From the sequence record PV467749.1: a stretch of 64,000 bases of DNA. One strand, written 5' to 3'. The notes under the pieces are model-generated. The model ran no database searches and was not told the DNA's origin. It saw nothing but the letters and a program-made list of their open reading frames with translations. Position numbers and translations under genes: made by a program. Source of the stretch: a phage. Of the stretch, positions 35,331 through 63,067 are shown piece after piece. Within the stretch, counting starts at the first letter, position 1; every line of letters begins with the position of its first letter.

Positions 35331-35831
35331 TTAGGTCACAGCTTTGTATTTCTCCATTGCTTCGGTGATATTCAATACTGCTTGCGGTACGTCACTTTTG
35401 TTGTATGCAATGGTTAGTTTTTCCATGTTATTGAGAAGACTTAGAAACAATGGAAGTACTTCTGCATTGTCACTGAAGTTACAATCATTGACAGTACTCA
35501 ATTGAAATAACTCACCCGCATCAACATTGAGTGTGTTGTATTCTTTAACAATGTTTTCTTCAGTATTGAAGATGTAGAATACAGTCCCCATGTGGTGTAA
35601 GTATACACCAGTTTCATTCTGAATATGACATGGGGTGATTACAATTGCTGTGTTATCAATATTATTTACTATTGTCAAACGCAGACTATGTAACCCAAAG
35701 ATTACAGTACAATCCTTTGTACTGTGTTGGATCTGGTCACTAGTAAAGGAAGACCCACTATGATTTTTAGAACCATTTAGTATTTCTTTGATAATTTTAA
35801 ATGAAATCTTCATCGAATTAGTTAAAAGCAT
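35331..35831 (-). CDS. array family A member
   Basis: 166 aa; core AGELFQLSTV. Confidence 0.6.
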   Translation of the reverse strand: MLLTNSMKISFKIIKEILNGSKNHSGSSFTSDQIQHSTKDCTVIFGLHSLRLTIVNNIDNTAIVITPCHIQNETGVYLHHMGTVFYIFNTEENIVKEYNTLNVDAGELFQLSTVNDCNFSDNAEVLPLFLSLLNNMEKLTIAYNKSDVPQAVLNITEAMEKYKAVT

Positions 35832-36231
35832 GAACTTTACCTTTAAGTAGATTAATTAATGTTCGCATAGATTCAGTACTGACAGTACCAAAATCAACAC
35901 CTAAGCACTCGTATTGAAAGAACTCAATAGAATCAATTGAGTCCAAAGGAATCTCAACAACCTGATTCCCTATACCAGACATAGTAACATTGCTTTTATT
36001 AATCGTCAAGAAGTTTTTTGAATAAGTATTAAATTTTAGTGAAATCGCGTCGGGGTGCTTTGTAACAATGCAGTACTGGGAACCATACACATATAGTACT
36101 TTACTTTCACTAAGATCTGTTTTAAAAAAATGAATCCCATTGAAGTATTTCTCATTGGCTCCCATCGCCGCGATTAGTTCATCTGTTGTTGTTAACCTTG
36201 TTTCGTTCTTCGTTAAACTGTTGAAAAGCAT
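35818..36231 (-). CDS. array family A member (divergent core)
   Basis: 137 aa; core SIEFFQYECL; start possibly internal Met 36165. Confidence 0.5.
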   Translation of the reverse strand: MLFNSLTKNETRLTTTDELIAAMGANEKYFNGIHFFKTDLSESKVLYVYGSQYCIVTKHPDAISLKFNTYSKNFLTINKSNVTMSGIGNQVVEIPLDSIDSIEFFQYECLGVDFGTVSTESMRTLINLLKGKVHAFN

Positions 36232-36652
36232 AGAATACTACCTTAACCATTTGTAGTGTTTCAGACATTACTTCTGATGAAAATTCAACATCATTGAATT
36301 TCAGCATAGTGTTCTGTGTAAAGAAAGTTGCTTCTAAGTCTTCTAGATTGAAGGGTTCATCAAACAAATTAGTACTGAACATGTCAGTCTTCTTCTTGTA
36401 TGTGAACAAGAATTTGGAATTATAACGAAGAACTATTTCATCTTTATTGACCAGAATACGTGCAATGTTCTGACGTGCTAATGTGGTAATGTTTAAATTG
36501 AACACGTTCTTGCGTGTTTCTGTGATATCAACAAAATACCCATCTCCCTGATGGATATTACATCGTACATCCAACCCTTTCTGTACTGTATTGAACAGTG
36601 CATCTTGAATAAAATAATTTGCTGTATCGATGTTTCCTAAAATGTCTAACAT
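36179..36652 (-). CDS. array family A member (divergent core)
   Basis: 157 aa; core LEATFFTQNTM. Confidence 0.5.
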   Translation of the reverse strand: MLDILGNIDTANYFIQDALFNTVQKGLDVRCNIHQGDGYFVDITETRKNVFNLNITTLARQNIARILVNKDEIVLRYNSKFLFTYKKKTDMFSTNLFDEPFNLEDLEATFFTQNTMLKFNDVEFSSEVMSETLQMVKVVFYAFQQFNEERNKVNNNR

Positions 36653-37164
36653 AACTTCTCCTTGATTGCTGTCATATTTAGAAGAAATTCTTCAAGCAAT
36701 TCCTCTGTAACATACTCAACATACCAGAATATCACAATATCTTTTGAAAGTCGAGTATTCTTAAAAATATCTACTAACTCTTTGTAGTACTCAAGATCAT
36801 ATACATCTTTTATAATTAGTGAGTACTGAAATAGTGATTCTTCAGTTAACTTAAATTCTGGATATAGTAGATCATTAAATTCCTTTGACCCAATTAGGAC
36901 TTTAATTTCTTTAAAATTATTTGTTATACCACCATTGCTTCCATATAACGCCGCATATTCCATGAATTTGGCTTTGGGGTTCCAGTCCAGAACCGTTTCC
37001 CCTTTATATGATAAACGATAGAACGCAGAGAACTTGGTTATTTCCCACGGTTGCTTAATGCCTAATTCATGTATATCAATCCCACTGTACAAAATATCAG
37101 TGAATATCTCACCAATCTTCAATAATAATTTAGTACGTGCTAGTACTGTCATAGGTTCAATCAT
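36646..37164 (-). CDS. array family A member
   Basis: 172 aa; core EESLFQYSLI. Confidence 0.6.
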   Translation of the reverse strand: MIEPMTVLARTKLLLKIGEIFTDILYSGIDIHELGIKQPWEITKFSAFYRLSYKGETVLDWNPKAKFMEYAALYGSNGGITNNFKEIKVLIGSKEFNDLLYPEFKLTEESLFQYSLIIKDVYDLEYYKELVDIFKNTRLSKDIVIFWYVEYVTEELLEEFLLNMTAIKEKLC

Positions 37165-37577
37165 TATACACCTTCATATTCATCAAGGAAATCTTCGATG
37201 ATCATTTCAGCTTCATCCATGTGCATAGCATCAACTTCAACAATGCGAACCTTAGACGTATCCCAAATCATATAGCTAGGAACTGTATCTGGTTCGTAAT
37301 CGTTTTTGTACTGAACTGCATCATAGCCGTTAATTTCGCAGTACTCAATCACTCCACGCCATTCGTCGTCACTGCCCATATCCGTCCACAGAAGCACGTT
37401 ATCAACATCAACTTCTAAGGTATGTAAGTATACTGTATCAGCGTCAACAACGTTCAGTGGGCTTCTCAGCTTGCGTAATGCAGCTTCTAAAGCACTGTGT
37501 TTACCTCCCATATGAAGGCCACCATACGGGATATAAAAGTTATCAATTTTTACAGTACTCGCATGATACAGTTTCAT
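37164..37577 (-). CDS. hypothetical protein, not family A; two H-x-S/T-like motifs
   Basis: 137 aa; LYHASTV and YLHTLEV; acidic C-terminus; 2H-phosphoesterase-like is only a tentative reading. Confidence 0.5.
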   Translation of the reverse strand: MKLYHASTVKIDNFYIPYGGLHMGGKHSALEAALRKLRSPLNVVDADTVYLHTLEVDVDNVLLWTDMGSDDEWRGVIEYCEINGYDAVQYKNDYEPDTVPSYMIWDTSKVRIVEVDAMHMDEAEMIIEDFLDEYEGV

Positions 37578-37586
37578 TATTCATTC

Positions 37587-38171
37587 CTATTTCAGTACTT
37601 TGACCAGGGCTTTAACCGCTGTTTCAAGTTGTGCAAAGTCGTTGATTGTAAGATAATGAATACCCAATGTACTCATTTCTGAATCTATTTTACTATACAA
37701 ATCGAACATGTCAAGTAGATATTGATATGTATATGACTCCGATGACACACATGATTCTTGAAATAGACGTTCTTCCATATCATTTACTACTTCATCATTT
37801 GCGTCTCGAATCACACCATCTTTGTATGTGTAGTAAATCTCATCCCATTCATCTGATAAGCGGAATAGTAAAGGTTTACCATTAAACATCTCAAGGTCAT
37901 ATGCATTGACTTCACTCAATAACATATCATCAGGATCAGGTGTGAAATCGAATTGAGCGAGTGAAGAACCATCATAATCCTTAAGGAATATACCAATAGC
38001 ATTCAATTTAACTTCGCCATAATTGCCATTCTTGAACTTTACACGAATATTAATATCAATGTTTTGAACAGTATCATCATCTTGGAATTGATAATCAATT
38101 TTATACTTTTCCCAAAGTTTTTTAATATCTTTAAAGTACTTAATTTTACTTTCTATTTCTTTAAAGTTCAT
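37587..38171 (-). CDS. array family A member
   Basis: 194 aa; core EERLFQESCV. Confidence 0.6.
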   Translation of the reverse strand: MNFKEIESKIKYFKDIKKLWEKYKIDYQFQDDDTVQNIDINIRVKFKNGNYGEVKLNAIGIFLKDYDGSSLAQFDFTPDPDDMLLSEVNAYDLEMFNGKPLLFRLSDEWDEIYYTYKDGVIRDANDEVVNDMEERLFQESCVSSESYTYQYLLDMFDLYSKIDSEMSTLGIHYLTINDFAQLETAVKALVKVLK

Positions 38172-38799
38172 CTGGAACCGCCATCTCTTGTATGTTCTTG
38201 CATTTTATCATTGCACAATTAGTATGTAAAATGATAGCGTACTTGTGTAATGATTTAATTTTATAACACTCATTAAGTACTGAAATGATGCCCCATAACT
38301 CTTCTACATCAATAGTGATAGGTTCACTAGTACTAAGTTGCATTAGTGCTGCTTCCACATCATCTTTGTTATTGATTTTGAACTGCATACCACGTTTCAG
38401 TATTTTGGTTTTTGGGTTATACTCTGCCATTACATCACCTTCAGGGTAACCCTCGTGTAATAATAATGTAGTCTCATAATCTCCACAATTGAAATTAATT
38501 TCATCATAGTCAGGAACACAAATCATTCCTTCACCATATTGATTATCTACTGATTCGATTGTTAAAATACGCTGATGTTCATTACTCAGGATAATAGAAT
38601 CATGCCAGTACTGCGTAGTGAATTTACTACGTTTCTTTTGACAGCACATACTTGACATGGGACCATACTTTTTATATAGGGACTTCTTGAATGCTATCGC
38701 ATCAGGAGCCACCTTAATAACTTCTCGAATTAGGTCAATAGCTTCTTGATAACTTTTTCTCATTTGTCGTACCCATATAAAATATGATCTAAAGTGCAT
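38161..38799 (-). CDS. array family A member (variant core)
   Basis: 212 aa track ORF; core EAALMQLSTS; probable start at internal Met 38763 (ATGA overlap). Confidence 0.55.
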   Translation of the reverse strand: MHFRSYFIWVRQMRKSYQEAIDLIREVIKVAPDAIAFKKSLYKKYGPMSSMCCQKKRSKFTTQYWHDSIILSNEHQRILTIESVDNQYGEGMICVPDYDEINFNCGDYETTLLLHEGYPEGDVMAEYNPKTKILKRGMQFKINNKDDVEAALMQLSTSEPITIDVEELWGIISVLNECYKIKSLHKYAIILHTNCAMIKCKNIQEMAVPDEL

Positions 38800-39311
38800 T
38801 GAACTTCTTCATGGAAGAACAGTGGGTAAATTTGTATCAATTTTTCTTTAAGTTCAAGTGAATGACATAATTCTAATGCTTTGATACAATCTTCATATTT
38901 GACTAAATTATGCAATGTACTTAACTGAAAATGTTGTTCTTCAGAGTAAGCTAAATCATATACCAAATTATCATCTAAAAGGTTTGATTTCTTTGAAGGA
39001 TCAAGTACTGTGTTGCTATGACCTACCCAGAAAAAAGCATTGGTGTTCATATTATTACAACCCCAACCTGCCCCCATTTTCTGGTGAATAGCAAAGACAC
39101 AACTATCATAGAGAATAATACCAAGACGCTCTTCGTTGACATAAATCGTAACACCATCGATTGTCATGGTTATTTGGAAACGCATTGAACCTTCACTTCG
39201 TGAACGTGCACAGAAGCCAAGATAACGGTTAATAATTGTATTGATTTTATCTGCCCATCCTTCCACATCTTTGGATGCACATAATTTAAAAAGATCATGA
39301 CTTTGATTCAT
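38760..39311 (-). CDS. array family A member
   Basis: 183 aa; core EEQHFQLSTL. Confidence 0.6.
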   Translation of the reverse strand: MNQSHDLFKLCASKDVEGWADKINTIINRYLGFCARSRSEGSMRFQITMTIDGVTIYVNEERLGIILYDSCVFAIHQKMGAGWGCNNMNTNAFFWVGHSNTVLDPSKKSNLLDDNLVYDLAYSEEQHFQLSTLHNLVKYEDCIKALELCHSLELKEKLIQIYPLFFHEEVQCTLDHILYGYDK

Positions 39312-39322: not shown

Positions 39323-39904
39323 TTAATCAAGCATAAGTGGCATCATCGCCCATATCTTTTTCATAATCATATCTTCAGTAAAAACAAACGTTTTAGGTGC
39401 AGTATATGATATTGACAACCCAAATGGAAGTACGATTGCATCATCAATTATATTATGAATATCAAACCATGTTTTTACACAATCATATGGTGGAAGTTCA
39501 TGTATTGTACTTAACTGAAAGTATTGTTCTTCACCAAATGTACTGCAATCAATATCACAAATTTTAGTGAATTGATGATTCCATTTAGATATAATACTGT
39601 TTTTATTATTGAACATATTAGTTCTATGCATGAAACCATTTCTGCTAATATGATTTGATATTGCGTTTTCTTCAATATCATTGCTTATTTTAAAATTCAT
39701 GTCAAAGTTGTAGTGCGAACTCGACGATTCTTTGAATTTTAAATGAAAATAACGATTGTTATTAATTTCCATTTCAATACAAAACACATCTGAATCAAAA
39801 CGATTAAACTTGTAATCGTTGTCTTCAGGTAGAGTTTGTAATTTTTTCATAACACCAAGCATAGGGTGCACTAAGCTTCTAATAAAATCATTAGTTATTT
39901 TCAT
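39323..39904 (-). CDS. array family A member
   Basis: 193 aa; core EEQYFQLSTI. Confidence 0.6.
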   Translation of the reverse strand: MKITNDFIRSLVHPMLGVMKKLQTLPEDNDYKFNRFDSDVFCIEMEINNNRYFHLKFKESSSSHYNFDMNFKISNDIEENAISNHISRNGFMHRTNMFNNKNSIISKWNHQFTKICDIDCSTFGEEQYFQLSTIHELPPYDCVKTWFDIHNIIDDAIVLPFGLSISYTAPKTFVFTEDMIMKKIWAMMPLMLD

Positions 39905-40397
39905 AGTATTCCTTTAGAACTTTAAATGATTCAACAATACTATCTTGTGTGTAATTAGAACTATATACAATTGCATTTGATTTGATTGACCACAGATATG
40001 ACATAAAGGTTATAACACTACTACATGAACTTAATGTATTGTTTTGGAATTCATTTTCTTCAATGTTATCAGTACTGGTATTGATGAATTGGATAGTATC
40101 TTGTTTCTGATTAGACATTGAAACTAAAGTACAATCAGTATAAGGAGTGTACAAAAACGTCTCATTACTAATTGAACTATCATTAGTATATGATGGTTTG
40201 GTAATATAAATCAAACGCATGATATCACGCTCAATACCCGATTTACGACTTTCCACTAAAGAAATCATATCTATATTTTTCATATGATCAACATTGACAT
40301 GGAACTTTTTGTTTAGAATTACATCTTTTGGGGAATTTTTATATGAAGATAAGATCTCATACATCTCAACTAATTCTCGTGCATTTAATAAACTCAT
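39891..40397 (-). CDS. array family A member
   Basis: 168 aa; core EENEFQNNTL. Confidence 0.55.
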   Translation of the reverse strand: MSLLNARELVEMYEILSSYKNSPKDVILNKKFHVNVDHMKNIDMISLVESRKSGIERDIMRLIYITKPSYTNDSSISNETFLYTPYTDCTLVSMSNQKQDTIQFINTSTDNIEENEFQNNTLSSCSSVITFMSYLWSIKSNAIVYSSNYTQDSIVESFKVLKEYYENN

Positions 40398-40822
40398 GTT
40401 TTGTCTCTTAATGAAAGAATATCCTTAGTATAAACTGATACAGAAATGTGATTGTATTTCATCATTAATTTATACACATAAGAAGCTAGTACTAAATCGT
40501 AAATTAATTTAGTATCATACAGTACTCCGTATTGTAAAGCAAGTGAATCAATATCATCTTTACTTTCAATATCCAGAAATGTGCCGAAATATGTAGTACC
40601 GTGGAGATGAAAATTGGAATTAATGCAATCAATGCATTCATTGTCCAACAGAGTAGATGATGATGCCCTCGGTGAATCCCAAATAGTCACTGCGTGTATG
40701 CCCTCAACGAACAAATCTATCCATATTTTGTGTCGTTGTCTTTTTTTTGTTTTATAATTTTCTGGATTTGAAAGTGTAGTTTCAATTATATCCCATATGT
40801 ATAAGCATTCATCTCTTGTCAT
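40394..40822 (-). CDS. array family A member (divergent core)
   Basis: 142 aa; SLALQYGVLYD. Confidence 0.45.
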   Translation of the reverse strand: MTRDECLYIWDIIETTLSNPENYKTKKRQRHKIWIDLFVEGIHAVTIWDSPRASSSTLLDNECIDCINSNFHLHGTTYFGTFLDIESKDDIDSLALQYGVLYDTKLIYDLVLASYVYKLMMKYNHISVSVYTKDILSLRDKT

Positions 40823-41400
40823 TATAGCACCTTATCCATTGCTGCATTTAATGCTTTTAAACGATCAACATTCAAAGTATTGAAGATGTACGTTCCTAAA
40901 ATGTGGAAATCGAACTGGTTCTTTTTGTATGTGTGATAAATTAAACTACAAAAAACAACAGTACTAAGAACCTCTTCCGGTATAACGGTGCTCATCTGAA
41001 ACAGTTCTTCATCAACTGTACTTGATTCTGGATTGATAGCTTTTAACTCATACTCTTTATCACCGAATAGTACTTTAATATTATATAAAACACCAACAGT
41101 ACTAATATGAAATGGGTGGTGTGAAAAACTTCCATCATCATTAATTTGGATATCGGATCTAATCTCGCACTCTTCATTACTTTTACTATTATTTTTTACA
41201 ATACAAATATTCCTGGCACCAGAAATAGTAAGAATACCGTGATCGTAATATTCTTTGGACATACATTTAGATGAAAATGACACATCACGAATGAGGTAAT
41301 GTTTGTTAATTTCTTTGGCACTACCAACAATGTGTAGCATCTTTGTACTGATATCATATAGCTGTTGGTGTCTGGCTGTCATATAACTATAAGCGTTCAT
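40822..41400 (-). CDS. array family A member
   Basis: 192 aa; core DEELFQMSTV. Confidence 0.6.
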   Translation of the reverse strand: MNAYSYMTARHQQLYDISTKMLHIVGSAKEINKHYLIRDVSFSSKCMSKEYYDHGILTISGARNICIVKNNSKSNEECEIRSDIQINDDGSFSHHPFHISTVGVLYNIKVLFGDKEYELKAINPESSTVDEELFQMSTVIPEEVLSTVVFCSLIYHTYKKNQFDFHILGTYIFNTLNVDRLKALNAAMDKVL

Positions 41401-41971
41401 ATGTATCCTTGATGTTTTTGATTGCCGTGTGTAGCTCTTTTAATGTATCGGATTCACAGTTAATGAACTTACTATACATTACCAATTCACCAGTGTCAAT
41501 AGCTTTTGCAGTTTCATAGCAAAGCATCATGTACTCAAACTCCTTGAAGTTGTCAAGTACTGATCTCTGGAAAATGTATGCTTCACGAATGTCTTCACTT
41601 TGATCTAGTTCTGGTGGAATTTCCAAATATGTATCATTCTCTACGTCATCAAAATTAGATTCAACAATTCGATTAATATCTTCGTGTAAAGCATTGACAA
41701 ATATCATGTTTGGAGTAATGGAACCGATTTGCTCACTATGCCTTGATGTGCGGATATACATTGCCATAGTATCCCATGAACCTTTTTTCGTCGTTCCATA
41801 ATCGTAAACTTTATAAGACTCCAGTACTACTGAACCAAAACGATATGGTGATTTGCATTCAACTTTAAGACGATAATTTCCAATAGGCTCATGTTCAGTA
41901 ATGTTGTGCTTTTCAGATAGTTCTGCAATGTCATGCATCAATTTCATAATTTGAATATGTTCAGCTTGCAT
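41387..41971 (-). CDS. array family A member
   Basis: 194 aa; core EAYIFQRSVL. Confidence 0.6.
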   Translation of the reverse strand: MQAEHIQIMKLMHDIAELSEKHNITEHEPIGNYRLKVECKSPYRFGSVVLESYKVYDYGTTKKGSWDTMAMYIRTSRHSEQIGSITPNMIFVNALHEDINRIVESNFDDVENDTYLEIPPELDQSEDIREAYIFQRSVLDNFKEFEYMMLCYETAKAIDTGELVMYSKFINCESDTLKELHTAIKNIKDTYERL

Positions 41972-42534
41972 TATAAGTCCTCTAATTTAACAGGTACATG
42001 TTCATTGATGAACGTCTTAAGAGCCAGTACTAGATCTTCTAATTCTTCTGTACTGAATTTTAATATAGTTTTAAAGATTATCAATTCATTTCTTTCTATA
42101 ATCTTTGGAATTTCATATGCTAACATAAGATTGCGAACAGTACCAGCGTTGTGTATGAGGTTCGCATTGAATAAAAGTACATCGTACTCGTCTTTTTTAA
42201 TTTTATAATTGTACTCTTCAATTACTTCATGTGTGTATGTATTCTTATAAGCAATTTTATTTTTATGAAATTTATAACCAACAGTAACACTATCATCATA
42301 AAATGTAGAACGATAATCTTGTTTTCTATCGCCGGACGAAATGATGTGTAATGCTGTGTATTTGTCCTCAACATCTAACTCAATGTTTGCATAACTGTTA
42401 ACAGTTTCATTCTTTAGGACGTTAATGTTATATTTCTCATTAACTTTAATGTACTGGCGTGAACCATTATCATCAATGAACTTAAAACAATGCTTTACCA
42501 ACAATGTGATTTCTTTAATTAATTCAGTACTCAT
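41971..42534 (-). CDS. array ORF, family A membership uncertain
   Basis: 187 aa; no clear FQ core (NELIIFKTIL). Confidence 0.5.
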   Translation of the reverse strand: MSTELIKEITLLVKHCFKFIDDNGSRQYIKVNEKYNINVLKNETVNSYANIELDVEDKYTALHIISSGDRKQDYRSTFYDDSVTVGYKFHKNKIAYKNTYTHEVIEEYNYKIKKDEYDVLLFNANLIHNAGTVRNLMLAYEIPKIIERNELIIFKTILKFSTEELEDLVLALKTFINEHVPVKLEDL

Positions 42535-42599
42535 ATCTTCTCCTGTACTCTGTTAAAAGCGATTATAACACACCTGAATGCTCATGTAAAGCACTAAAC

Positions 42600-42621
42600 A
42601 CAAAAAGACCCATAAGGGTCT
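42600..42621 (-). terminator. intrinsic terminator inside the array
   Basis: AAGACCC-ATAA-GGGTCTT stem followed on the minus strand by TTTGTGTTT; directly 3' of CDS 42622..43206. Confidence 0.55.
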
Positions 42622-43206
42622 TTATTTTGGTAAAACGCTGTCAATGTACGCTAGAGCCTCATCTCGGAGGTACGTTCCATCTATCGTTATGTAATAGTTC
42701 TTAGGGATATCACTACCAATCTTCTCGTAAATTTTCATACATGATATCACATCTTCATCACAAATGGTACTCAATTGAAACTGTACTTCATCAGTTAAAG
42801 GTACGATATCATGTTTAGATGGGGGGTTGGTATTTTCATTCAAAACAATATCAAACAAATTAGGAGTATTCTTTGACGAAATGTAACGATGTTTACTACG
42901 AATTACCATTCTCGACAGAGAAATACTGGAACTCCATCTTGGGTCCACATCTTCGTATGTTAACGCAATTAACATTTCATAATAATCTTGGAATTTCATT
43001 GATGCATAATATGTTTTGTCCTCACCGTACATTCCAAATGATTTGAATTCAATGTCACCTACATTGTGTGTATCGCTATCACTATTCACGAATTTTAACA
43101 GACTGTTGATTAGTCTGATTAGAATATCATCTTTATTCATTATCAGATAACTCCCTGTGCATGTTGTATAAATCTCTAAAGTCCTGATAGAAATCTTTTT
43201 CTTCAA
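42622..43206 (-). CDS. array family A member
   Basis: 194 aa track ORF; core DEVQFQLSTI; probable start ATG 43140 with AGGGAG RBS. Confidence 0.6.
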   Translation of the reverse strand: MKKKISIRTLEIYTTCTGSYLIMNKDDILIRLINSLLKFVNSDSDTHNVGDIEFKSFGMYGEDKTYYASMKFQDYYEMLIALTYEDVDPRWSSSISLSRMVIRSKHRYISSKNTPNLFDIVLNENTNPPSKHDIVPLTDEVQFQLSTICDEDVISCMKIYEKIGSDIPKNYYITIDGTYLRDEALAYIDSVLPK

Positions 43207-43699
43207 GAATATCTTTTAAACTAGGAATCTCATCCATAATCTCATCGATATCAGTTTCAATAGTAAAACCTGATTTATAATTTTGTAAGAGATAACTAAA
43301 AGCAACAATGTAAAGAATTTCATTTGGTTTATGGATTAACATGTGTTGGAACATAACTGATTCTAAATCAGATTCAGTACTAAGGTCAGCATAACATGTA
43401 TCGTTTATGTCAATTCGTACTTTACTTGAATTTGGATTCCATGTAAAGCAATGTGTTCCAACTGTTCCCAAACATCCTACTCTTGTACTATCATTTGTTC
43501 CCAAAAAGATATCAAAATACGTTTCATCTGTATAATCGTATTTTTGTACTTTACCTTTTTTAAGGCATAAATCATTATCCTTTCGAAAAGTTTTAGATGA
43601 TAGTGTATCAATGATGCACATTAATGTTTTTGCAAATGCAATACAATGACGTAATTCAAGTCTATGGAAATTATAATTAGTAAAATTCAAAAAATTCAT
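43133..43699 (-). CDS. array family A member
   Basis: 188 aa; core ESVMFQHMLI. Confidence 0.55.
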   Translation of the reverse strand: MNFLNFTNYNFHRLELRHCIAFAKTLMCIIDTLSSKTFRKDNDLCLKKGKVQKYDYTDETYFDIFLGTNDSTRVGCLGTVGTHCFTWNPNSSKVRIDINDTCYADLSTESDLESVMFQHMLIHKPNEILYIVAFSYLLQNYKSGFTIETDIDEIMDEIPSLKDILEEKDFYQDFRDLYNMHRELSDNE

Positions 43700-46414: not shown

Positions 46415-46447
46415 TGTGATATAACCCTTTACAATTAATATAAAGAG

Positions 46448-52755: not shown

Positions 52756-52941
52756 TCAACTCCTGTGTTGTGTCTTGATATAATCTCGGTAAACCATGTG
52801 AATATTAGCTATATACAATTCACTAATATCATATGTACCGAAGTACATGTCATTCCTAATGCTGTTGTTATGTCTAATATCAATTACGAATCGTCGAAGT
52901 ATTGTATTCATGAATGATTCCATTTGTTCTTTTTTATTCAT
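52756..52941 (-). CDS. small hypothetical protein (61 aa)
   Basis: short ORF filling a gap between array members; weak family-B-like FGTYDISELY. Confidence 0.4.
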   Translation of the reverse strand: MNKKEQMESFMNTILRRFVIDIRHNNSIRNDMYFGTYDISELYIANIHMVYRDYIKTQHRS

Positions 52942-54779: not shown

Positions 54780-55406
54780 TTAGCACCCTTTAACAACTTT
54801 TGAAATGTAATCTTCTAATGCACCAATGTTCTTTGTATTCGTTCGAACTAAAAGATAACTTAAATCCTCGAACTCCTGAACATAATGCTTAACAGCGTAC
54901 ATGCATCGTAATTCAAAATCTGTATGAACCGTTTTGTACTGAAATAACATCTCTTCTGAAGCCTCTAAAAGCTCTGTGGCTTGTTCTGTACTGAACTTAA
55001 AGGGATTCTGTACTCCTGAACTAAAACACTTTTGTTCGTTCGTCTGGACACCCTGTGATAGATATAATCCTGTGCTACCATCTTGTGTTGATATCGAATT
55101 GAAACCATTACTTGCAACCATTAAATCTGAACTCAATACAAATAATAATTTATCTTCCTTATGAATTAATAAATCTGACTTCAGGGATTTTATTCCTGTA
55201 CTGGTTATATCACCTATACTAAGATTGTCACTGAACTTCTCAGCGTTGTTCGCAATGCTCTGGACAAGATTTTTTAATCTCTTAATGGCACTTCTGTCTT
55301 TTTCTAATGTATCTAATAAACTCATTGAACTCATTGTACTTTCCTTACATATTTGTACCGAACAAAACGGAACTTTGAATGCCATTAATCGACACTTCAT
55401 GTACAT
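54780..55406 (-). CDS. array family A member
   Basis: 208 aa; core EEMLFQYKTV. Confidence 0.6.
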   Translation of the reverse strand: MYMKCRLMAFKVPFCSVQICKESTMSSMSLLDTLEKDRSAIKRLKNLVQSIANNAEKFSDNLSIGDITSTGIKSLKSDLLIHKEDKLLFVLSSDLMVASNGFNSISTQDGSTGLYLSQGVQTNEQKCFSSGVQNPFKFSTEQATELLEASEEMLFQYKTVHTDFELRCMYAVKHYVQEFEDLSYLLVRTNTKNIGALEDYISKVVKGC

Positions 55407-55689
55407 ATATATTTTGTCTGAATACCTGAAGCAATTGAACTAAACTCTGTTGCATAATAATATGCATCGCTAAATTATCAAAGGCCGTTTCGTATTGGAA
55501 TCGTGCAGCTTCATCTTCTATGAAATTCGGAACTTGGACTGGATTTTCAAAATTTGTCCTTGTACTGAACTGTACATCATTGTCCTGTACCTTAATACCA
55601 TATGAATTATCATTGTTATCAACTACATCAAATTCAATTAAACTACCATCTTTACTGACGTTTACTATATAAACTGAAAATCTACTCAT
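55345..55689 (-). CDS. array family A member
   Basis: 114 aa; core EAARFQYETA. Confidence 0.55.
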   Translation of the reverse strand: MSRFSVYIVNVSKDGSLIEFDVVDNNDNSYGIKVQDNDVQFSTRTNFENPVQVPNFIEDEAARFQYETAFDNLAMHIIMQQSLVQLLQVFRQNIYVHEVSINGIQSSVLFGTNM

Positions 55690-56324
55690 AATCCTATTTC
55701 CTTTAAATCTTCCAAAAATGTTTCATAATCACTTAAGGAAAAAAAGATATCCGTATCGATGTTCGCATCTAATACATTATACAAATTCTGCATCTGTAAC
55801 ACATCAGGAGCATCAATCAATGATTGCTGGAAATATGCAGCTTCATCTTCTAAAATATCCCTGAATGATCTCTCTCGTACTCTGTGGTGTACTGAATTGA
55901 ATATTGATTTCTCATCCTTAAGCATTGGTAGGTATCGAATGTACATGTGTTCTCTTAGCTCTGGACTGATGGAACCCCTGAACTGTAACACGTATTCGAA
56001 GCACATAACAACATCCTGAAGGTAATTGGCACTGTAATTATTGCTGTAAACAATCTTATGACTTCTGAACTCATCATCATTTCTGAACCAATTGTCACCT
56101 ACTCTGGTGTACTTATGACTAAGCAATCCACCCTCTAACGCTTTGATGATCTTCAAAATGTTGTGTGCAAATGCATATGATGTATTGTACTTGGCCTGAT
56201 ACATGTGTGCCTCAACCTTATCTTGTGTTAAAATATTCACTGAAATGATTATAACACAAAAGCACCACGATGTTAAGCACTCTGTTGTCAAAATCATCTT
56301 GTGATGTAGGATGCAAGGACGCAT
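55686..56324 (-). CDS. array family A member
   Basis: 212 aa track ORF; core EAAYFQQSLI; probable start at internal Met near 56204 (GAGG RBS). Confidence 0.6.
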   Translation of the reverse strand: MRPCILHHKMILTTECLTSWCFCVIIISVNILTQDKVEAHMYQAKYNTSYAFAHNILKIIKALEGGLLSHKYTRVGDNWFRNDDEFRSHKIVYSNNYSANYLQDVVMCFEYVLQFRGSISPELREHMYIRYLPMLKDEKSIFNSVHHRVRERSFRDILEDEAAYFQQSLIDAPDVLQMQNLYNVLDANIDTDIFFSLSDYETFLEDLKEIGL

Positions 56325-56413: not shown

Positions 56414-57022
56414 TTATATATTCAACCCTTTAACAATGGAAATAAATTCTTTGTATACATTTTCAGGTAAAGCTCTACTACCATAAAGAACACTAAATTC
56501 AGGTAACATATCCGAAATCTCTTTCGCTAAATTTATTTCATCCCTGAACATTTGCACAGGCATGATATCCTGTACCAATGATAACTGAAAGAAAAATGAT
56601 TCAATATCTTCATGCACCTCTGAATTTAAATAAATCTCTTCTGGAAACTGGGCTGTACTGTAATAATAAAATACGTCAATTCTTTTTTCATTATTTTGTA
56701 CAAGAGGTAAATTTCTTTCGTCTCTCTTATTAATATTTGTTTTCCATGACTCAATGTTATTCGGAACCCAAAACTCATAAGGTGTCTTCTCTCCTGAAAT
56801 ATTATCCAGCTTCAATCCATAATATTCACTTTCGCCGTACTTTTGCTTCAAAACAATACCTGTACTACTAATGTTTACAATGTACGTATCAACAATCCCT
56901 TCTGTGGTAAAAGGAATATTTAACTCTGAACCTTCAGGGTACTTAGCATTGAATGCATCTAATGCTTTACTTAGCACTGGAATTGCACTTGTACTGTACT
57001 TCATTAATTGGTCTATGTTCAT
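56414..57022 (-). CDS. array family A member
   Basis: 202 aa; core ESFFFQLSLV. Confidence 0.6.
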   Translation of the reverse strand: MNIDQLMKYSTSAIPVLSKALDAFNAKYPEGSELNIPFTTEGIVDTYIVNISSTGIVLKQKYGESEYYGLKLDNISGEKTPYEFWVPNNIESWKTNINKRDERNLPLVQNNEKRIDVFYYYSTAQFPEEIYLNSEVHEDIESFFFQLSLVQDIMPVQMFRDEINLAKEISDMLPEFSVLYGSRALPENVYKEFISIVKGLNI

Positions 57023-57603
57023 TTTAATTCCCCTGTAATCATACTGATATTTGAACGATACATATCGTACACTGTACTTTCTTTCTTGTGCACAATGAAA
57101 TCATAAAGATCAACAAATGCAGGAATAATAATCTTGAATGATTTATTTGGGTACGTCCCAAAATCAACTGTACTCAATTTTGCAACGAGCATAACAACAA
57201 AGATTTCTTCTGGACTATGCAATGTACTGTACTGAAAATATTCCTCAGCACTCATGGCACTTATTGCATTTATATCTTGTGTTTGTAATGTAATATTAAG
57301 ATATTCAAAAATAGAATAAAACTCTGATTTTGTTTGTATTTTGTATTTGTCAATTGGGGTATCTCTCATGAACCATAAACGGTCCTGACCATAAAAAGGA
57401 ATGATTGAATTTGGGGAACCCAAAAAAACTTCTTCTCTATCAATATCCTTTAACTCAATTTGCATACCGGATGAATTGGCAATAATTAATTCATTAAAAA
57501 TGTAATGAACCTTGTGTACAATCTCTTGTACTGAATTGAAATCATCTGGTATTTTAAAATTTTCCATAGGTATCTCCTTAAAAATGATTACACATTGTAC
57601 CAT
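57019..57603 (-). CDS. array family A member
   Basis: 194 aa; core AEEYFQYSTL. Confidence 0.6.
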   Translation of the reverse strand: MVQCVIIFKEIPMENFKIPDDFNSVQEIVHKVHYIFNELIIANSSGMQIELKDIDREEVFLGSPNSIIPFYGQDRLWFMRDTPIDKYKIQTKSEFYSIFEYLNITLQTQDINAISAMSAEEYFQYSTLHSPEEIFVVMLVAKLSTVDFGTYPNKSFKIIIPAFVDLYDFIVHKKESTVYDMYRSNISMITGELK

Positions 57604-57640
57604 GCATTTGTACTCGTGTCAAACAAAAAAAGCCCATATC

Positions 57641-58138
57641 TTACGATACAGGCATGTTTATTTGAATTTCATTGTACAAATCATCAATATATAGACATGA
57701 AAACGATAAACTTTCTTTAACTATATTGTTGTGATAAAGCATTTTAAACACTATATAGAAAAATAAATCAATATCATCATGAACTAAATTCTGCTGGAAC
57801 CACCACTCTTCTGTTAAATCTTGTGCATTAAAATCATCAGGAACTTCAATTGACGACATATCAGCATCTTCTTTGTACTCAAACCACATGTCGTCATTTG
57901 GAAAACGTTCATGCTTCTCTGGGTAACAATTGCTGGGATTAAATGCTAAAATATAAAATACCGTCGCAGAATGTTCTTTATTAAAAAATGAATTATTCCA
58001 CACCTGATACCTTTCACCAACATCAAGCTCTTTTGATACTGATGTTATTGCACATAATGTACGATATATTGTTTCTATTTTGTGAACAAATTTAAAGGCT
58101 GCATCTAAACTAAACTCTAAATCAGACATGCGGTGCAT
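57641..58138 (-). CDS. array family A member
   Basis: 165 aa; core EEWWFQQNLV. Confidence 0.6.
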   Translation of the reverse strand: MHRMSDLEFSLDAAFKFVHKIETIYRTLCAITSVSKELDVGERYQVWNNSFFNKEHSATVFYILAFNPSNCYPEKHERFPNDDMWFEYKEDADMSSIEVPDDFNAQDLTEEWWFQQNLVHDDIDLFFYIVFKMLYHNNIVKESLSFSCLYIDDLYNEIQINMPVS

Positions 58139-58458
58139 AAAATTACCTCAACTAAAATAAGAACGGTATTGAATTCGAGGCAACCTTTGATACCTTGATT
58201 GTACATGTACTTTGCTACTACATATTTCTGTACTAAATTATAATTATTAAATTCCTCAAAATTGTAATTTAGAATGAAATTTGTACTCAAAAATAACTTA
58301 TGCATCTCTAATGCACTCTGATAATATTTGTACAACTCACTGATATCAATACTTTGTAAATCACTTTGTTCATATGTATGATAAGGAATGGCGTCAATAT
58401 CAATATTATTAAACCATTCTCTTAACTTATTAATATCAAATGTATTATTCAGCTTCAT
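58117..58458 (-). CDS. array ORF, divergent family A-like
   Basis: 113 aa; ISELYKYYQSAL. Confidence 0.45.
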   Translation of the reverse strand: MKLNNTFDINKLREWFNNIDIDAIPYHTYEQSDLQSIDISELYKYYQSALEMHKLFLSTNFILNYNFEEFNNYNLVQKYVVAKYMYNQGIKGCLEFNTVLILVEVILCTACLI

Positions 58459-59023
58459 AACTCAATACCTCCATTAAGCACTCATAAACACCATCAATCG
58501 CATAAGCACAAAAACTGAAATTAATTTTGTTATTCTTGTGTAATGGACTATCGTGTACTGTACTCAACATAACACTATAAAACAAAGAACGTTCATGTGT
58601 AAATAATGATTCCTGAAAAAATGCTTCCTCTGATTTAATTTTATTATATTCAATCGATTGATCATTAGAATAAAATGAATCTTGATTTGAATTGTACCAT
58701 GTGTAATCCAAATCATTCTTTGATATAACTGGTGTTGGATTAAACTGTAAAAGACTAATAACACTACGGGCATTTGGGGTATCAGGTGTATTGAATCGTT
58801 TATCAAAATGACTCGTGCACGCAATATGTGAATCAAAATCAGATGGTTTAAACCCCATGAATGCGTTAATGATTCTTGTATATGGTTTTTTATTATGTGC
58901 TGCTTTCTGTACATTATATAAGGCTGCAACAATACAAGCTAACTTTTGTCCCATAAGGATTGCATTAGCGTAGGTGTACTGAATTTCATTGTACTCATTG
59001 CTTTCATTGTACTTCGAGATCAT
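58445..59023 (-). CDS. array family A member
   Basis: 192 aa; core EEAFFQESLF. Confidence 0.6.
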   Translation of the reverse strand: MISKYNESNEYNEIQYTYANAILMGQKLACIVAALYNVQKAAHNKKPYTRIINAFMGFKPSDFDSHIACTSHFDKRFNTPDTPNARSVISLLQFNPTPVISKNDLDYTWYNSNQDSFYSNDQSIEYNKIKSEEAFFQESLFTHERSLFYSVMLSTVHDSPLHKNNKINFSFCAYAIDGVYECLMEVLSYEAE

Positions 59024-59345
59024 GGAACAGCCTCACTTTGCCTAACTCGTCATTGGATATAAATTCGTTAACAGCTTTCTGTATATTCCTTAATAATAGC
59101 ACATCAAATCCTTTTGTGTCAAGCACACATTGCATTTGGAAGAATTCTTCTTCTGATAATGTATTAAAATCCACAAAATTGTCTAATATTACGTCATTAT
59201 CCAAATGTGCCATGTGCCATGTATTTCTTTCGGAGCGTTTAATAAAATTCCATCCATCTGGATAATCGGGTTCTAATTCTACATATATCCCCGATACTGT
59301 ATAAAGCATTTTATATATCATAACTATTGTACTCATTGCTTTCAC
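59004..59345 (-). CDS. array family A member (near-duplicate pair)
   Basis: 113 aa; DFNTLSEEEFFQMQCVLD. Confidence 0.65.
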   Translation of the reverse strand: MKAMSTIVMIYKMLYTVSGIYVELEPDYPDGWNFIKRSERNTWHMAHLDNDVILDNFVDFNTLSEEEFFQMQCVLDTKGFDVLLLRNIQKAVNEFISNDELGKVRLFHDLEVQ

Positions 59346-59653
59346 TGTACGTCGATGTCATAATACGCTCCTACCTCATAATCTTTCTTGCTTTGGAATT
59401 CATTAACGACTTTCTGTATATTTCTTAATGTTACCATGTCATGTCCGTACATGTCAACCACCAATTGCATTTGGAAAAATTCTTCTTCAGATAATGTATT
59501 AAAATCTATAAAATAATCCGTAACAACATGTTCGTCTAAATTTGCCATGTACCATTGATTGGTATCGACCTCTTTAACCAAATTCCATGCATCTGGATCG
59601 GATTCTAATTCTACATATATTAATGTTAATGTATACAGCATTTTATACTTCAT
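59342..59653 (-). CDS. array family A member (near-duplicate pair)
   Basis: 103 aa; DFNTLSEEEFFQMQLVVD. Confidence 0.65.
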   Translation of the reverse strand: MKYKMLYTLTLIYVELESDPDAWNLVKEVDTNQWYMANLDEHVVTDYFIDFNTLSEEEFFQMQLVVDMYGHDMVTLRNIQKVVNEFQSKKDYEVGAYYDIDVQ

Positions 59654-60203
59654 AACTATATCCTTGCATTAAAAGAACATAAGCAATATCAACTAATTCT
59701 AAACGAATGAAAAATTTTAAATTATCTTTCAATAGATTCAAATGCATTATACTAAACAACATAAGATACTTCATTTGATTTGTATTGTATATTAGGGATG
59801 TCTGAAATACTTCTGCTTCATTGTAAGGATCAATAAATTTTATACCTTCTTCACTGTAATCCGTTTTGGAATTCTGATATATAAAATAATCATCACCAGC
59901 ATTGTACCACAAATAACCTTCAAAACTAGAATCAAATTCTGAATTTTCATTTCGCATTAAAGGTGATACTGAAATTGGATTTGAACCAACTGTTGCACAA
60001 ACCTCAATGTAAGCATCTTCACTTCCCTTAACTTCCTCTTTGATTTTATCATTGTACTGTCCTGCAAAACCAGCTTTTACTTCCAAATATAAACTACTCC
60101 CAACTTTATTAATTCTTAAAAGGGAACTCTGTACTGTATTCGCATTGTTCAGCACTAACGATATTGTGCAAATCTTATGTACCAATAACTCAATATCATT
60201 CAT
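59643..60203 (-). CDS. array family A member
   Basis: 186 aa; core EAEVFQTSLI. Confidence 0.6.
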   Translation of the reverse strand: MNDIELLVHKICTISLVLNNANTVQSSLLRINKVGSSLYLEVKAGFAGQYNDKIKEEVKGSEDAYIEVCATVGSNPISVSPLMRNENSEFDSSFEGYLWYNAGDDYFIYQNSKTDYSEEGIKFIDPYNEAEVFQTSLIYNTNQMKYLMLFSIMHLNLLKDNLKFFIRLELVDIAYVLLMQGYSYEV

Positions 60204-61199: not shown

Positions 61200-61511
61200 T
61201 TATATATTGACATGTTTTGTTATCCCTGCTGTACCTTGTATTAAATTATCATACATATCGAGCATCACTTTTTGAATACTAATTAATACTGGCATCGTGC
61301 AAATATCAATGTCGTATATTAAGCTGTACTGGAATAATTCCTCTTCCTGCATTTGTACTAAATTAGGTAAAAGATAATTGTCTGCCTCTTCATCCTGGTA
61401 CTTGAAATGCATAACACCATCCTTTTTGTACAAAAGAATGTCAATATCACCTAACTCTTCTGCATAACCAAAAATACATATACTCGATGTTTTTGCTATA
61501 TTAAATTTCAT
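61200..61511 (-). CDS. array family A member
   Basis: 103 aa; core EEELFQYSLI. Confidence 0.6.
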   Translation of the reverse strand: MKFNIAKTSSICIFGYAEELGDIDILLYKKDGVMHFKYQDEEADNYLLPNLVQMQEEELFQYSLIYDIDICTMPVLISIQKVMLDMYDNLIQGTAGITKHVNI

Positions 61512-61520: not shown

Positions 61521-61871
61521 TTATATGTAGAATTCACATACGCGTTGAACAAAATTCTTTGGAAGATGACAATGTGCAATCATCTGCTTTTGTACTTCCT
61601 TCATGTCTTCGAATGTAAATCCTAAAGAATCATCATGTACTAACAAGTACTGAAACTCTTCTTCTTCAGAGATAGAACATAAATTCGGTACTGAAATTGT
61701 TTTTGCTTTTCTTGCACCCAATTTCCAATGAAAAGAATTATTGCATTTTCTGTACTCAAATATCTTCAACCCAGAACCTGTATTAAAATCAGCTACTACA
61801 ATGTAACATGAATTCTTACGTACAATACAATTGAACTTACGCATTATCTCCACCTCTCTCCGTCTGTACAA
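61521..61871 (-). CDS. array family A member
   Basis: 116 aa track ORF; core EEEEFQYLLV; probable start at Met10 (61844) behind a GGAGAGAGGTGGAG RBS. Confidence 0.6.
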   Translation of the reverse strand: MYRRREVEIMRKFNCIVRKNSCYIVVADFNTGSGLKIFEYRKCNNSFHWKLGARKAKTISVPNLCSISEEEEFQYLLVHDDSLGFTFEDMKEVQKQMIAHCHLPKNFVQRVCEFYI

Positions 61872-62089
61872 GAGTACTGGTACGTTGTCGTTAGGGTAGG
61901 GACCATGTTTGTAATGGGCATATTATTAACAATAACGGTAACAGGCATAAGAATCGTCTCTTCTCTACTCTGTCCTGTCCTTGTGCAATTCATCTTTTGC
62001 ATTTCATCGGACTCCATGAAATACAATACAAATGGTGCAATCCCAAGAACAATACACAAGACGATAAGGAAATTTAAAAAATTCAACAT
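61844..62089 (-). CDS. small membrane protein (81 aa) embedded in the array
   Basis: ATG 62089..62087 with GGGG RBS; hydrophobic LNFLNFLIVLCIVLGIAPFVLYF; stop TAA overlaps the downstream ATG (TAATG). Confidence 0.45.
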   Translation of the reverse strand: MLNFLNFLIVLCIVLGIAPFVLYFMESDEMQKMNCTRTGQSREETILMPVTVIVNNMPITNMVPTLTTTYQYSCTDGERWR

Positions 62090-62153
62090 AATTTTTACCC
62101 CATGATTAACGTACAGGTACTATATCAGTAATGAAAAGTACTGTCAAGTACTG

Positions 62154-62369
62154 TCATTTGCATTTGGACTTTATTTGACACATCAACCCCCAAATTAAAT
62201 ATCGAACACTATCAGCTTGATAGTTTGTTCCTACTGTGTGTTTTAAGATTAACTCATCTTTCAGTACTGAACATTCTGCATTAGATATAGGAAGAGAATT
62301 AATTCTTTTAATTTCTGGTTGTAAAGTCCTGATAAGATTGGTGTAATCTTTGTATGATAATCTTTTCAT
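62154..62369 (-). CDS. family B small protein (divergent)
   Basis: 71 aa; HTVGTNYQADSVRYLIWGL. Confidence 0.45.
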   Translation of the reverse strand: MKRLSYKDYTNLIRTLQPEIKRINSLPISNAECSVLKDELILKHTVGTNYQADSVRYLIWGLMCQIKSKCK

Positions 62370-62372
62370 TGT

Positions 62373-62714
62373 TCAGTACTCAACGATGTGTTCTTCATAA
62401 CCATTAAACTCCGGTTTAGTTTCTTTCATTAGGACTACCATTTTATGTACTAATGGCATAGGAAATTCTAAATCCCATACTAATGATTCTTGAAAGTATT
62501 CTTCTTCAGATAAAGTACTTAAATCTTTAATATCAACGTGCTTGTATATTTTATTTTCGTAATTAAGAAATGATATATATAAATCATTAACATAAGAATC
62601 ATAAGTAATTGTGAATGGCTTACCCTTGTAGTCCATTACATCTTTACATAGACTGCATTTGATATATGTATGTTCTTCTGAACTGTATACATTGAGTTGT
62701 ATATTAGTTTTCAT
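62373..62714 (-). CDS. array family A member (near-duplicate pair)
   Basis: 113 aa; MKTNIQLNVY...DLSTLSEEEYFQESLVWDLEFPMPLVHKMVVL. Confidence 0.65.
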   Translation of the reverse strand: MKTNIQLNVYSSEEHTYIKCSLCKDVMDYKGKPFTITYDSYVNDLYISFLNYENKIYKHVDIKDLSTLSEEEYFQESLVWDLEFPMPLVHKMVVLMKETKPEFNGYEEHIVEY

Positions 62715-62728
62715 AGTTACCTTATATA

Positions 62729-63067
62729 TTAATACTCAATAATGTGATCTTCATAACCATTAGGTACAGGCTTAGTTTCTTTTATTAGTACTATCATCTT
62801 ATGTACTAATGGCATAGGAAACTCCAAATCCCATACTAATGATTCTTGAAAGTATTCCTCTTCAGATAAAGTACTTAAATCTTCAATGTCAATGTGTTCG
62901 TACATGTTATATTTGTAATCAGCAAAAGATATATAAAAACCTCTTGTATTATCATAAGTAAGTGCAAATGGCTTACCTTTGTAGTCCATTACAGAGTTAC
63001 ATGTATGGCATTTGATGTATGTACTTGCAAATGATTTATATACCTTGAGTTTTATATTAGTTTTCAT
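62729..63067 (-). CDS. array family A member (near-duplicate pair)
   Basis: 112 aa; MKTNIKLKVY...DLSTLSEEEYFQESLVWDLEFPMPLVHKMIVL. Confidence 0.65.
   Translation of the reverse strand: MKTNIKLKVYKSFASTYIKCHTCNSVMDYKGKPFALTYDNTRGFYISFADYKYNMYEHIDIEDLSTLSEEEYFQESLVWDLEFPMPLVHKMIVLIKETKPVPNGYEDHIIEY

Follow-up and report, generated by a model that had tools for sequence, protein, structure and literature searches.

The phage sequence record PV467749.1 was analysed over a stretch of 64,000 nt (the window; all coordinates are on its scale), which carries a 28-kb array of small genes whose products share a short core around a Phe-Gln pair, here called the FQ family. Over 8 kb the window matches Escherichia phage WPEC3 at 98.8% identity; eight further coliphages of 350–386 kb, of which several (fEgEco12, CMSTMSU) belong to Asteriusvirus by assignment, match it at 95–99%; on these identities, its source is an Asteriusvirus-type Escherichia coli jumbo phage. 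Its G+C content is 30–37%, nearly every open reading frame (ORF) lies on the minus strand, and all genes under the match carry the annotation ‘hypothetical protein’.

A core hidden Markov model (HMM), seeded with 34 minus-strand FQx[ST] ORFs and iterated to convergence, identifies 41 significant family members (E 3e-7 to 5e-18). All are on the minus strand within 35331..63067, where an earlier note on this DNA, made from the letters alone, had placed the array, and the rest of the window holds no core HMM match with E below 0.06. A broader profile, built from the core family and its distant homologues, brings in 43133..43699 (E 5.6e-16) and raises the number of significant members to 42; four more ORFs (starting at 38161, 39891, 55345, and 41971) are borderline by profile or BLAST. 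The earlier count of 48 clear and 4 divergent members is thereby revised to ∼42 clear and ∼4 borderline ones, and the earlier range, although it does enclose the array, leaves out two outliers 13 kb away (22032..22721 and, as a possible member, 22718..23296).

The shared core is not a product of chance. FQx[ST] occurs 35 times against 2.2 expected from 1000 per-protein shuffles (maximum 8), and 28 ORFs carry it behind an acidic prefix, against 0.05 expected. The family motif, [ST]-E-E-x-aromatic-F-Q-x-S-[TL]-[ILV]-[YH], lies 40–72 residues from the C-terminus. Across 140 non-redundant cores, in which F and Q are fixed by the core selection itself, the consensus reads [TS] (69%), E (82%), E (79%), x, [Y/L/H/F], F, Q, x, S (86%), [T/L] (91%), [I/V/L] (91%), [Y/H] (64%), and [D/S/N/T]. 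By BLAST, 14 linked members form a long class and 13 members of 103–137 amino acids (aa) a short class, beside many singletons joined by profile alone; no columns other than F and Q are invariant in the alignments of both classes. Profile–profile alignment of the two classes over the core (93.5% probability, E 2.3e-7) bears out that the FQ core is positionally homologous across members. Synonymous codons at the motif vary like the background, with Ser drawn from both codon boxes, so that conservation acts on the protein and a conserved DNA or RNA element is ruled out. Family members are small (about 100–200 aa) and mostly acidic (median isoelectric point 4.8, net charge down to −30). They contain no membrane or hydrophobic segments except one in a doubtful 5′ extension (see below), and membrane or secreted proteins were rejected on this ground. 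As judged from sequence, the array is one hyper-expanded paralogous family built around this core.

Predicted fold of the FQ family

AlphaFold2 models, built with paralog alignments, describe one member of each class. The long-class model (50935..51378; predicted local distance difference test (pLDDT) 81.6, predicted template modelling score (pTM) 0.79) runs from an N-terminal helix through six strands, a short EEYYFQN helix, a long helix, and a strand to a C-terminal helix. The short-class model (47343..47702; pLDDT 78.5, pTM 0.74) has five strands followed by the FQ helix, a long helix, and one more strand at the end. The motif segment is modelled as a helix with pLDDT 92–97. The predicted common core is an antiparallel β-sheet, a short helix with [ST]EE-x-aromatic-FQ-x-S, a longer helix, and a final strand, which the long class extends, in its model, by a helix at each end, the N-terminal one conserved. 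Scans of all 41 class-alignment proteins against Pfam-A, NCBIfam, and PADLOC (best E ≥ 0.003, under the cut-off) and sequence-profile searches of PDB returned neither a named domain nor an enzymatic motif, in agreement with the first reading of the letters, which had recognised neither an enzymatic motif nor a named domain. Likewise, every Foldseek match among viral models was an uncharacterised protein, from 121Q, RaK2, SP27, Serratia phage BF, or GAP32.

A helical wheel places E(−4), E(−3), Y(−1), F(0), Q(+1), S(+3), and L/T(+4) within an arc of about 100 degrees and the variable positions −2 and +2 on the opposite face. This separation leads us to read the motif as a packing or capping core and not as an exposed docking or cleavage site: the leading S/T-E-E looks like a helix N-cap, and the motif probably forms the structural centre of the fold. 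Two other known motifs were considered and discarded. An ADP-ribosyltransferase-like ‘STS’ reading of FQxST does not hold, as Thr is found in about half of the members, the other motifs of these enzymes are absent or misordered, and the 103-aa members are too small. A β-clamp-binding motif is ruled out as a family-wide feature, with the pentapeptide QL[SD]LF in 0/42 members and the relaxed hexapeptide QLxLxL in 2/42.

The predicted helix also bears on a resemblance, raised in the earlier note, to the sites of Gln-specific proteases of the 3C or tobacco etch virus (TEV) type, whose substrates or decoys the members would be, cleaved after FQ. E-E-x-Y-F-Q is locally similar to TEV NIa (E-x-x-Y-x-Q) and picornaviral 3C sites, and two members read EEMYFQG and EEGYFQG. 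Across the family, however, the similarity breaks down: 13/42 members fit ExxYxQ, and 2/42 are full matches with a small P1′ residue (G, S, or A) as well, while the segment is a confidently predicted, packed helix and not an extended loop. No cognate protease is found among the window ORFs, where the peptidase domains are only ClpP-type and not Gln-specific; of the ClpP and HslV-like peptidases reported earlier, the former are present but no HslV-like peptidase was seen among the ORFs scanned. We consider cleavage at FQ highly improbable.

Distribution, selection and turnover

An exhaustive profile search of 1.84 billion representative proteins returned 127 clusters at E ≤ 1e-3, many of them only 22–35% identical to window members with the motif kept. 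Searching with tblastn and the profile consensus was too insensitive, reaching Asteriusvirus only, and the distribution was taken from HMMs run on fetched loci. The search for homologues in other phages, which the earlier note had suggested, uncovered arrays in Salmonella phage Munch (22 members, three beside its RNA ligase), in Klebsiella phage RaK2 (31 members, then dam, rnlA, and pseT, in the same order as in the window), and in a 28-kb metagenomic contig (27 members in the 15.6 kb examined). The RNA ligase-adjacent members in both Munch and the window indicate that the placement of the outliers is conserved. Syntenic arrays across genera show that the array is ancestral to the clade and has evolved further by duplication, loss, and exchange. 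By these searches, the family is specific to the clade of Rak2-like enterobacterial jumbo phages.

In PHROGs, member orthologues (phrog_9317, 12674, 13866, 15629, 34017, 28549, 35776, 34636, and 19795; E down to 1e-116) are split over many ‘unknown function’ families with weak cross-hits, never joined as one superfamily and without annotation. In the literature searched, neither the FQ family nor its motif, fold, or distribution is described; paralog arrays are mentioned only in passing (PMC5646251, PMC7247149, PMC3622015, PMC5259590, PMC13282480). Tandem duplication has been proposed as a route of jumbo genome growth, citing an array in 121Q (Hua et al. 2017, PMC5646251). RaK2 was described as a phage in which ‘nearly 10% of gene products are paralogues’ (PMC3622015), 22 paralogous ORFs were noted in CBB (PMC5259590), and a 2026 review cites only the 121Q paralog sentence (PMC13282480), which may refer to a neighbouring ∼70-aa family (see below) rather than to the FQ family. 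The papers on 121Q, phAPEC6 (PMC7247149), RaK2, and CBB concern the same phages and the same genomic region and invoke tandem duplication as its origin, but none defines the family, its motif, size, structure, or distribution. The FQ family is a new, unnamed protein family and an example of lineage-specific gene-family expansion in a giant virus.

That the ORFs are real genes, as the earlier note had supposed, is supported across orthologs. All members have intact ORFs, and in a comparison of the window with phage BF17 (∼83% nucleotide identity) by reciprocal best hits, the ratio of nonsynonymous to synonymous substitution rates (dN/dS) for 36 members has a median of 0.24 and never exceeds 0.7. 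Pooled over the members, the ratio is 0.20 in the core and 0.28 in the N-terminal part. By this measure the members are under purifying selection, and gene-wide positive selection is not seen (every dN/dS < 0.7). Median identity to BF17 is 75.5% for family proteins versus 86% for flanking genes, and neighbouring array genes differ strongly, with dS between 0.09 and more than 2 and protein identity between 40% and 95%. This gene-to-gene contrast in dS indicates mosaic recombination, with frequent allele replacement within the array. Five members lack a BF17 counterpart, and fEgEco12 (98.5% nucleotide identity) has three extra members, 38–51% identical to the nearest paralog; such unequal copy number between close relatives fits birth-and-death evolution. 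The hallmarks of that process are present: tandem paralogs with neighbours closest, variable copy number, and ORFs kept by selection.

Best BLAST partners are neighbours in the blocks at 50935, 52938, 59004, and 62373. These adjacent copies had been called near-identical, but their protein identity is only 33–71%: 71% in the closest pair, 62373/62729 (86% DNA identity over 207 nt), 58% for 59004/59342, 33–41% in the 50935 block, and 40–43% in the 52938 block. Recent duplication is rejected, the best DNA repeat being that of 62373/62729. Moreover, 24/43 members are nearer a gene in another phage genus, versus 19/43 nearer a paralog in their own genome, and together these observations indicate that much of the expansion is ancient. 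Of the ongoing tandem duplication first proposed, the adjacency of the closest paralogs and the varying copy number remain, but recent copies do not.

These data also speak to the view that the array is mostly neutral filler, tandem duplicates kept because a larger capsid tolerates extra DNA, as in the ratchet model of Hua et al. (2017). Such a view gains from the proposal of tandem duplication for jumbo growth with an array in 121Q (PMC5646251) and from the gain and loss of members between relatives. Nonetheless, dN/dS of about 0.24 (in 36/36 ortholog pairs with a measurable ratio), a motif invariant across genera, and recognisable counterparts of 24/43 members in other genera make it very unlikely.

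Expression signals, genome position and neighbouring genes

The genes follow one another tail to head, and just five of the gaps between them in 28 kb exceed 30 nt. Promoters were scored by sigma-70 consensus matching (x/12, with TG marking an extended −10). Four of the five gaps hold TG-extended matches of 11/12 to 12/12, and a terminator stands before two; the tail-to-head packing with internal promoters and terminators noticed at first sight thus stands (for example, the 12/12 TG promoter at 46448..46477 and the terminator at 42604..42623). Sites with at least 11/12 over the window number 19 on the coding strand versus one on the other, and the same bias is found in fEgEco12, BF17, Munch, and RaK2 (strand ratios in relatives 15:1, 14:2, 34:7, and 8:1). 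From this strand bias, the whole 64-kb stretch looks driven by host RNA polymerase.

The fEgEco12 array lies 27–56 kb from the experimentally mapped left end, just beyond a direct terminal repeat of 20,993 bp, and its transcription leads away from that end (PMC13070987); by homology to fEgEco12, the window array would likewise lie beside the terminal repeat. RpoD-type promoters of CBB concentrate in the equivalent small-gene region, which its authors took for early genes (PMC5259590), and RNA-seq of PA5oct shows that terminal-repeat small genes are early (PMC7318152). Among the 62 proteins identified by mass spectrometry in the phAPEC6 virion, there is no entry between gp347 and gp549, the range that holds the one mapped family member (gp442c). 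The sigma-70 signals, the terminal-repeat position, and the virion proteome point to proteins that are probably early, soluble, and cytoplasmic and have no structural role. Proteins of the virion or its inner body, or ejected ones, with the paralogous inner-body families of phiKZ-like phages as a precedent, would otherwise be conceivable, given the inner body of 121Q and phAPEC6 (PMC5646251, PMC7247149) and the paralogous head-protein families of other jumbo phages (PMC12676376). We give this explanation hardly any credence, in view of the phAPEC6 proteome (0/62 in that range) and of genes that sit behind sigma-70, not late, promoters.

Downstream of the array on the same strand lies a cluster of nucleic-acid repair, modification, and accessory genes (684-30530), including those for Dam methylase, RNA ligase 1 (Rnl1), polynucleotide kinase-phosphatase (PNKP), DNA ligase, two ClpP-like proteins, dCMP deaminase, Sir2, and PhoH-PIN (Table 1). 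Rnl1, PNKP, and Dam are classic counter-defence functions. Within this cluster, the 177-aa ORF at 29476-30009 has an fEgEco12 orthologue labelled ‘ribonucleotide reductase A’ but no Pfam match. In RaK2 and Munch, the gene at this position is recorded as a cytidylyl- or nucleotidyltransferase, and the label in fEgEco12 is probably wrong.

A second family, likewise expanded and made up of ∼60–90 aa proteins ending ‘LGT(D/N/Q)xQE..V..(Y/H)I..L’, contributes eight copies to the window, and four of these are scattered through the FQ array. This family, the ∼70-aa family mentioned above, has no Pfam match. The stretch of fEgEco12 that was examined holds 31 copies, of which 27 follow the terminal repeat immediately as a single run. 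Two further non-family ORFs lie in the array. One encodes 137 aa (MKLYHASTVKIDNFYIPYGGLHMGG...), is 90% conserved with BF17 (dN/dS 0.18), has no Pfam match, and is unrelated to its neighbours. The other, of 81 aa, lies just upstream of a strong promoter, and its product, with a strongly hydrophobic N-terminal segment, is likely a membrane protein. Finally, the longest ORF at 55686-56324 has a hydrophobic 5′ extension that holds an 11/12 TG promoter (56248-56276). Its true start is probably downstream of this internal promoter, near MYQAKYNT, for a protein of ∼172 aa; the BF17 and P0049 homologues are about 172 aa long.

Table 1. Coordinates of FQ-family members (array from distal to proximal end, then outliers), expression signals, and other genes
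Feature	Position	Strand	Evidence
Member, long class, distal array end	35331..35831	-	core HMM E 4.3e-10; best cross-genus match Munch 35703-36188, 34% over 134 aa
Member	36646..37164	-	core HMM E 1.5e-9
Member	37587..38171	-	core HMM E 4.2e-11
Probable divergent member, MQLST instead of FQxS	38161..38799	-	A1 profile E 1.1e-4, broad profile E 1.8e-3
Member	38760..39311	-	core HMM E 8.8e-10
Member	39323..39904	-	core HMM E 8.1e-14
Borderline member, EENEFQNNT	39891..40397	-	broad profile E 6e-3
Member	40822..41400	-	core HMM E 6.8e-13
Member	41387..41971	-	core HMM E 1.9e-10
Borderline member, motif lost	41971..42534	-	BLAST link to 41387 only, E 4.5e-4; profiles not significant
Member	42622..43206	-	core HMM E 8.8e-14
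Member, degenerate motif MFQHML	43133..43699	-	broad profile; best match RaK2 22429-23037
Member, long class	44222..44716	-	core HMM E 3.6e-14
Member, short class	44704..45117	-	core HMM E 3e-11
Member, short class	45101..45463	-	core HMM E 8.7e-13
Member, long class	45456..45938	-	core HMM E 1e-14
Member, long class	45935..46414	-	core HMM E 2.2e-13
Member, long class	46474..47064	-	core HMM E 6.8e-11
Member, short class	47015..47353	-	core HMM E 3e-12
Member, short class, modelled	47343..47702	-	core HMM E 3.8e-17
Member	48301..48897	-	core HMM E 4.1e-13
Member	49210..49743	-	core HMM E 3.9e-10
Member, long class	49730..50185	-	core HMM E 1.9e-12
Member, long class	50151..50624	-	core HMM E 4.4e-13; without reciprocal best hit in BF17
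Member, short class	50624..50938	-	core HMM E 4.5e-12
Member, long class, modelled, first of four-gene tandem block	50935..51378	-	core HMM E 4.9e-18
Member, long class, net charge −30	51356..51844	-	core HMM E 4.3e-17
Member, long class	51847..52287	-	core HMM E 9.8e-16
Member, long class	52284..52754	-	core HMM E 9.1e-14
Member, short class, in three-gene block (four genes in fEgEco12)	52938..53282	-	core HMM E 3.7e-16
Member, short class	53282..53638	-	core HMM E 2.1e-12
Member, short class	53635..54048	-	core HMM E 2.1e-15
Member, divergent	54780..55406	-	core HMM E 3.3e-7
Borderline member, EAARFQYET	55345..55689	-	profiles E 0.06-0.1
Member	55686..56324	-	core HMM E 2.9e-9
Member	56414..57022	-	core HMM E 1.3e-10
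Member	57019..57603	-	core HMM E 3.2e-11
Member	57641..58138	-	core HMM E 3.9e-12
Member	58445..59023	-	core HMM E 5.4e-13
Member, short class, tandem pair with 59342	59004..59345	-	core HMM E 4.4e-11
Member, short class	59342..59653	-	core HMM E 1.1e-11
Member	59643..60203	-	core HMM E 2.5e-12
Member, short class	61200..61511	-	core HMM E 2.6e-15
Member, short class	61521..61871	-	core HMM E 1.8e-11
Member, short class, closest tandem pair	62373..62714	-	core HMM E 4.2e-13
Member, short class, proximal array end	62729..63067	-	core HMM E 7.6e-14
Outlying member, SEEEHFQLMMM, just upstream of RNA ligase 1	22032..22721	-	broad profile E 1.5e-4; best match Munch 48320-48958 beside Munch RNA ligase
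Possible outlying member, PEHFQIGTLYD	22718..23296	-	motif in translation only
Sigma-70-type promoter, 11/12 + TG, 87-nt gap after terminator	42562..42590	-	consensus match
Intrinsic-terminator-like hairpin, 8 bp stem, T run	42604..42623	-	
Sigma-70-type promoter, 12/12 + TG, 59-nt gap	46448..46477	-	consensus match
Sigma-70-type promoter, 11/12 + TG	56248..56276	-	
Sigma-70-type promoter, 11/12 + TG	57594..57622	-	
Intrinsic-terminator-like hairpin, 9 bp stem, T7 run	57632..57653	-	
Sigma-70-type promoter-like site, 11/12 + TG, within coding region	59093..59122	-	
Sigma-70-type promoter, 11/12 + TG, 64-nt gap	62119..62147	-	
PIN-PhoH	684-2123	-	
Sir2	3362-4114	-	
Weak second ClpP-like gene	5290-5898	-	
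dCMP deaminase	6442-6918	-	
ClpP	8829-9524	-	
Metallophosphoesterase	10372-11163	-	
DNA ligase	11183-12601	-	
Metallophosphoesterase	14734-15492	-	
PNKP	18873-19805	-	
Rnl1	20628-21770	-	
Dam	30006-30530	-	
Non-family ORF, 137 aa	37164-37577		
Non-family ORF, 81 aa	61844-62089		
Second-family copy	48845-49036		
Second-family copy	49014-49241		
Second-family copy	60913-61188		
Second-family copy	62154-62369		
Second-family stretch, runs past window end	63057-63970		
Second-family copies (coordinates of locus L001, not of the window)	40323-46512		

Candidate roles of the array

The array, upstream of the known counter-defence genes (Dam, Rnl1, and PNKP), appears to be transcribed as five or six operons by unmodified host RNA polymerase acting on near-consensus sigma-70 promoters at the start of infection. 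The promoters would divide it into blocks at 35.3–42.5, 42.6–46.4, 46.5–54.0, 54.8–57.6, 57.6–62.1, and 62.2–63.1 kb. If the motif is the structural core, its helix would hold the fold, and the variable sheet and loops would carry the specificity of each paralog. Each paralog would then bind and neutralise or redirect a different host component, whether a defence system or a takeover target, and the repertoire would be kept by purifying selection and, whenever host range shifts, reshaped through duplication, loss, and recombination. Evidence from promoters, genome position, and the virion proteome fits a family of diversified host-takeover or counter-defence proteins, a reading that we hold with moderate confidence; the protease-site, virion-protein, and neutral-filler explanations are contradicted by the motif, virion-proteome, and dN/dS data, respectively.

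Several observations weigh against this proposal. No dN/dS is above 1, and the variable region is barely less constrained than the core (0.28 vs 0.20), which leaves no direct arms-race signature. Expression timing is read from consensus promoters and by analogy, and burial of the motif from helical periodicity only. Furthermore, the invariant Gln, together with the ∼80% conserved Glu-Glu and Ser, is more polar than a pure packing core usually needs, and a common ligand, metal, or partner for these residues is possible.

A common partner is the premise of a different explanation, in which the FQ helix docks all paralogs onto one host or phage machine (a protease/unfoldase or RNA polymerase) and the variable sheet recruits targets. 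Across 140 non-redundant, divergent cores, mostly less than ∼35% identical to window members, F and Q never vary and conservation of E, E, and S reaches 80–86%, which is more than fold upkeep usually needs; genes for ClpP and a second ClpP-like protein follow the array on its strand. The combination of a constant module with a variable part also matches known viral adaptor families. Against such a hub, the conserved residues lie opposite the variable positions in a segment predicted as a packed helix (pLDDT above 90), and a known docking motif is absent (β-clamp pentapeptide, 0/42). We judge an adaptor library of this kind unlikely, and slightly more doubtful still its bolder form, in which the FQ helix would be a universal docking module linking ∼45 target-recognition domains to a single machine, e.g. 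a Clp-type protease/unfoldase. If true, the array would be a phage adaptor library for the selective destruction or rewiring of host proteins, a counterpart of the poxvirus F-box and BTB adaptor families on a fold without known relative.

Diversified takeover or counter-defence proteins would have several parallels. The SPO1 host-takeover module and the T5 pre-early genes are early blocks of small genes with host-type promoters and a terminal-repeat position. The FQ array resembles these blocks and that of PA5oct (PMC7318152) in its small genes of unknown function, strong host-type promoters, terminal-repeat position, and single direction. Those blocks, however, are mixtures of unrelated genes, whereas the array consists of about 45 paralogs of one fold, and their early timing was measured, whereas here it is a prediction. 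The ankyrin/PRANC and BTB-kelch families of poxviruses and the MGF360/505 families of African swine fever virus form tandem arrays near genome ends, undergo copy-number birth-and-death, combine a conserved with a variable module, and act in host range or immune evasion. They differ from the FQ family in having no sequence or fold kinship to it, in their eukaryotic hosts, and in a shared partner that is known for several of them. The jumbo phage G shows a lineage-specific expansion of ∼35 zinc-ribbon proteins (Iyer et al. 2021, PMC7824862) and, as in the FQ array, encodes one small domain tens of times. Its domain can be recognised as a zinc ribbon and plausibly binds DNA, whereas the FQ fold has no known relative.

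This one family takes up about 8% of a 350–385 kb genome, and roughly 10% together with the neighbouring ∼70-aa family. Its arrays persist across genera under purifying selection with an invariant motif, so the family must matter to the phage. The array offers a testable case of jumbo genome growth by gene-family expansion, an idea for which published support has so far come in single sentences. Should the members be diversified inhibitors, each phage would carry ∼45 related binders, from a pool of >120 sequence clusters, against bacterial targets or defence systems, and comparison of paralogs on a common scaffold would reveal how their specificity is encoded.

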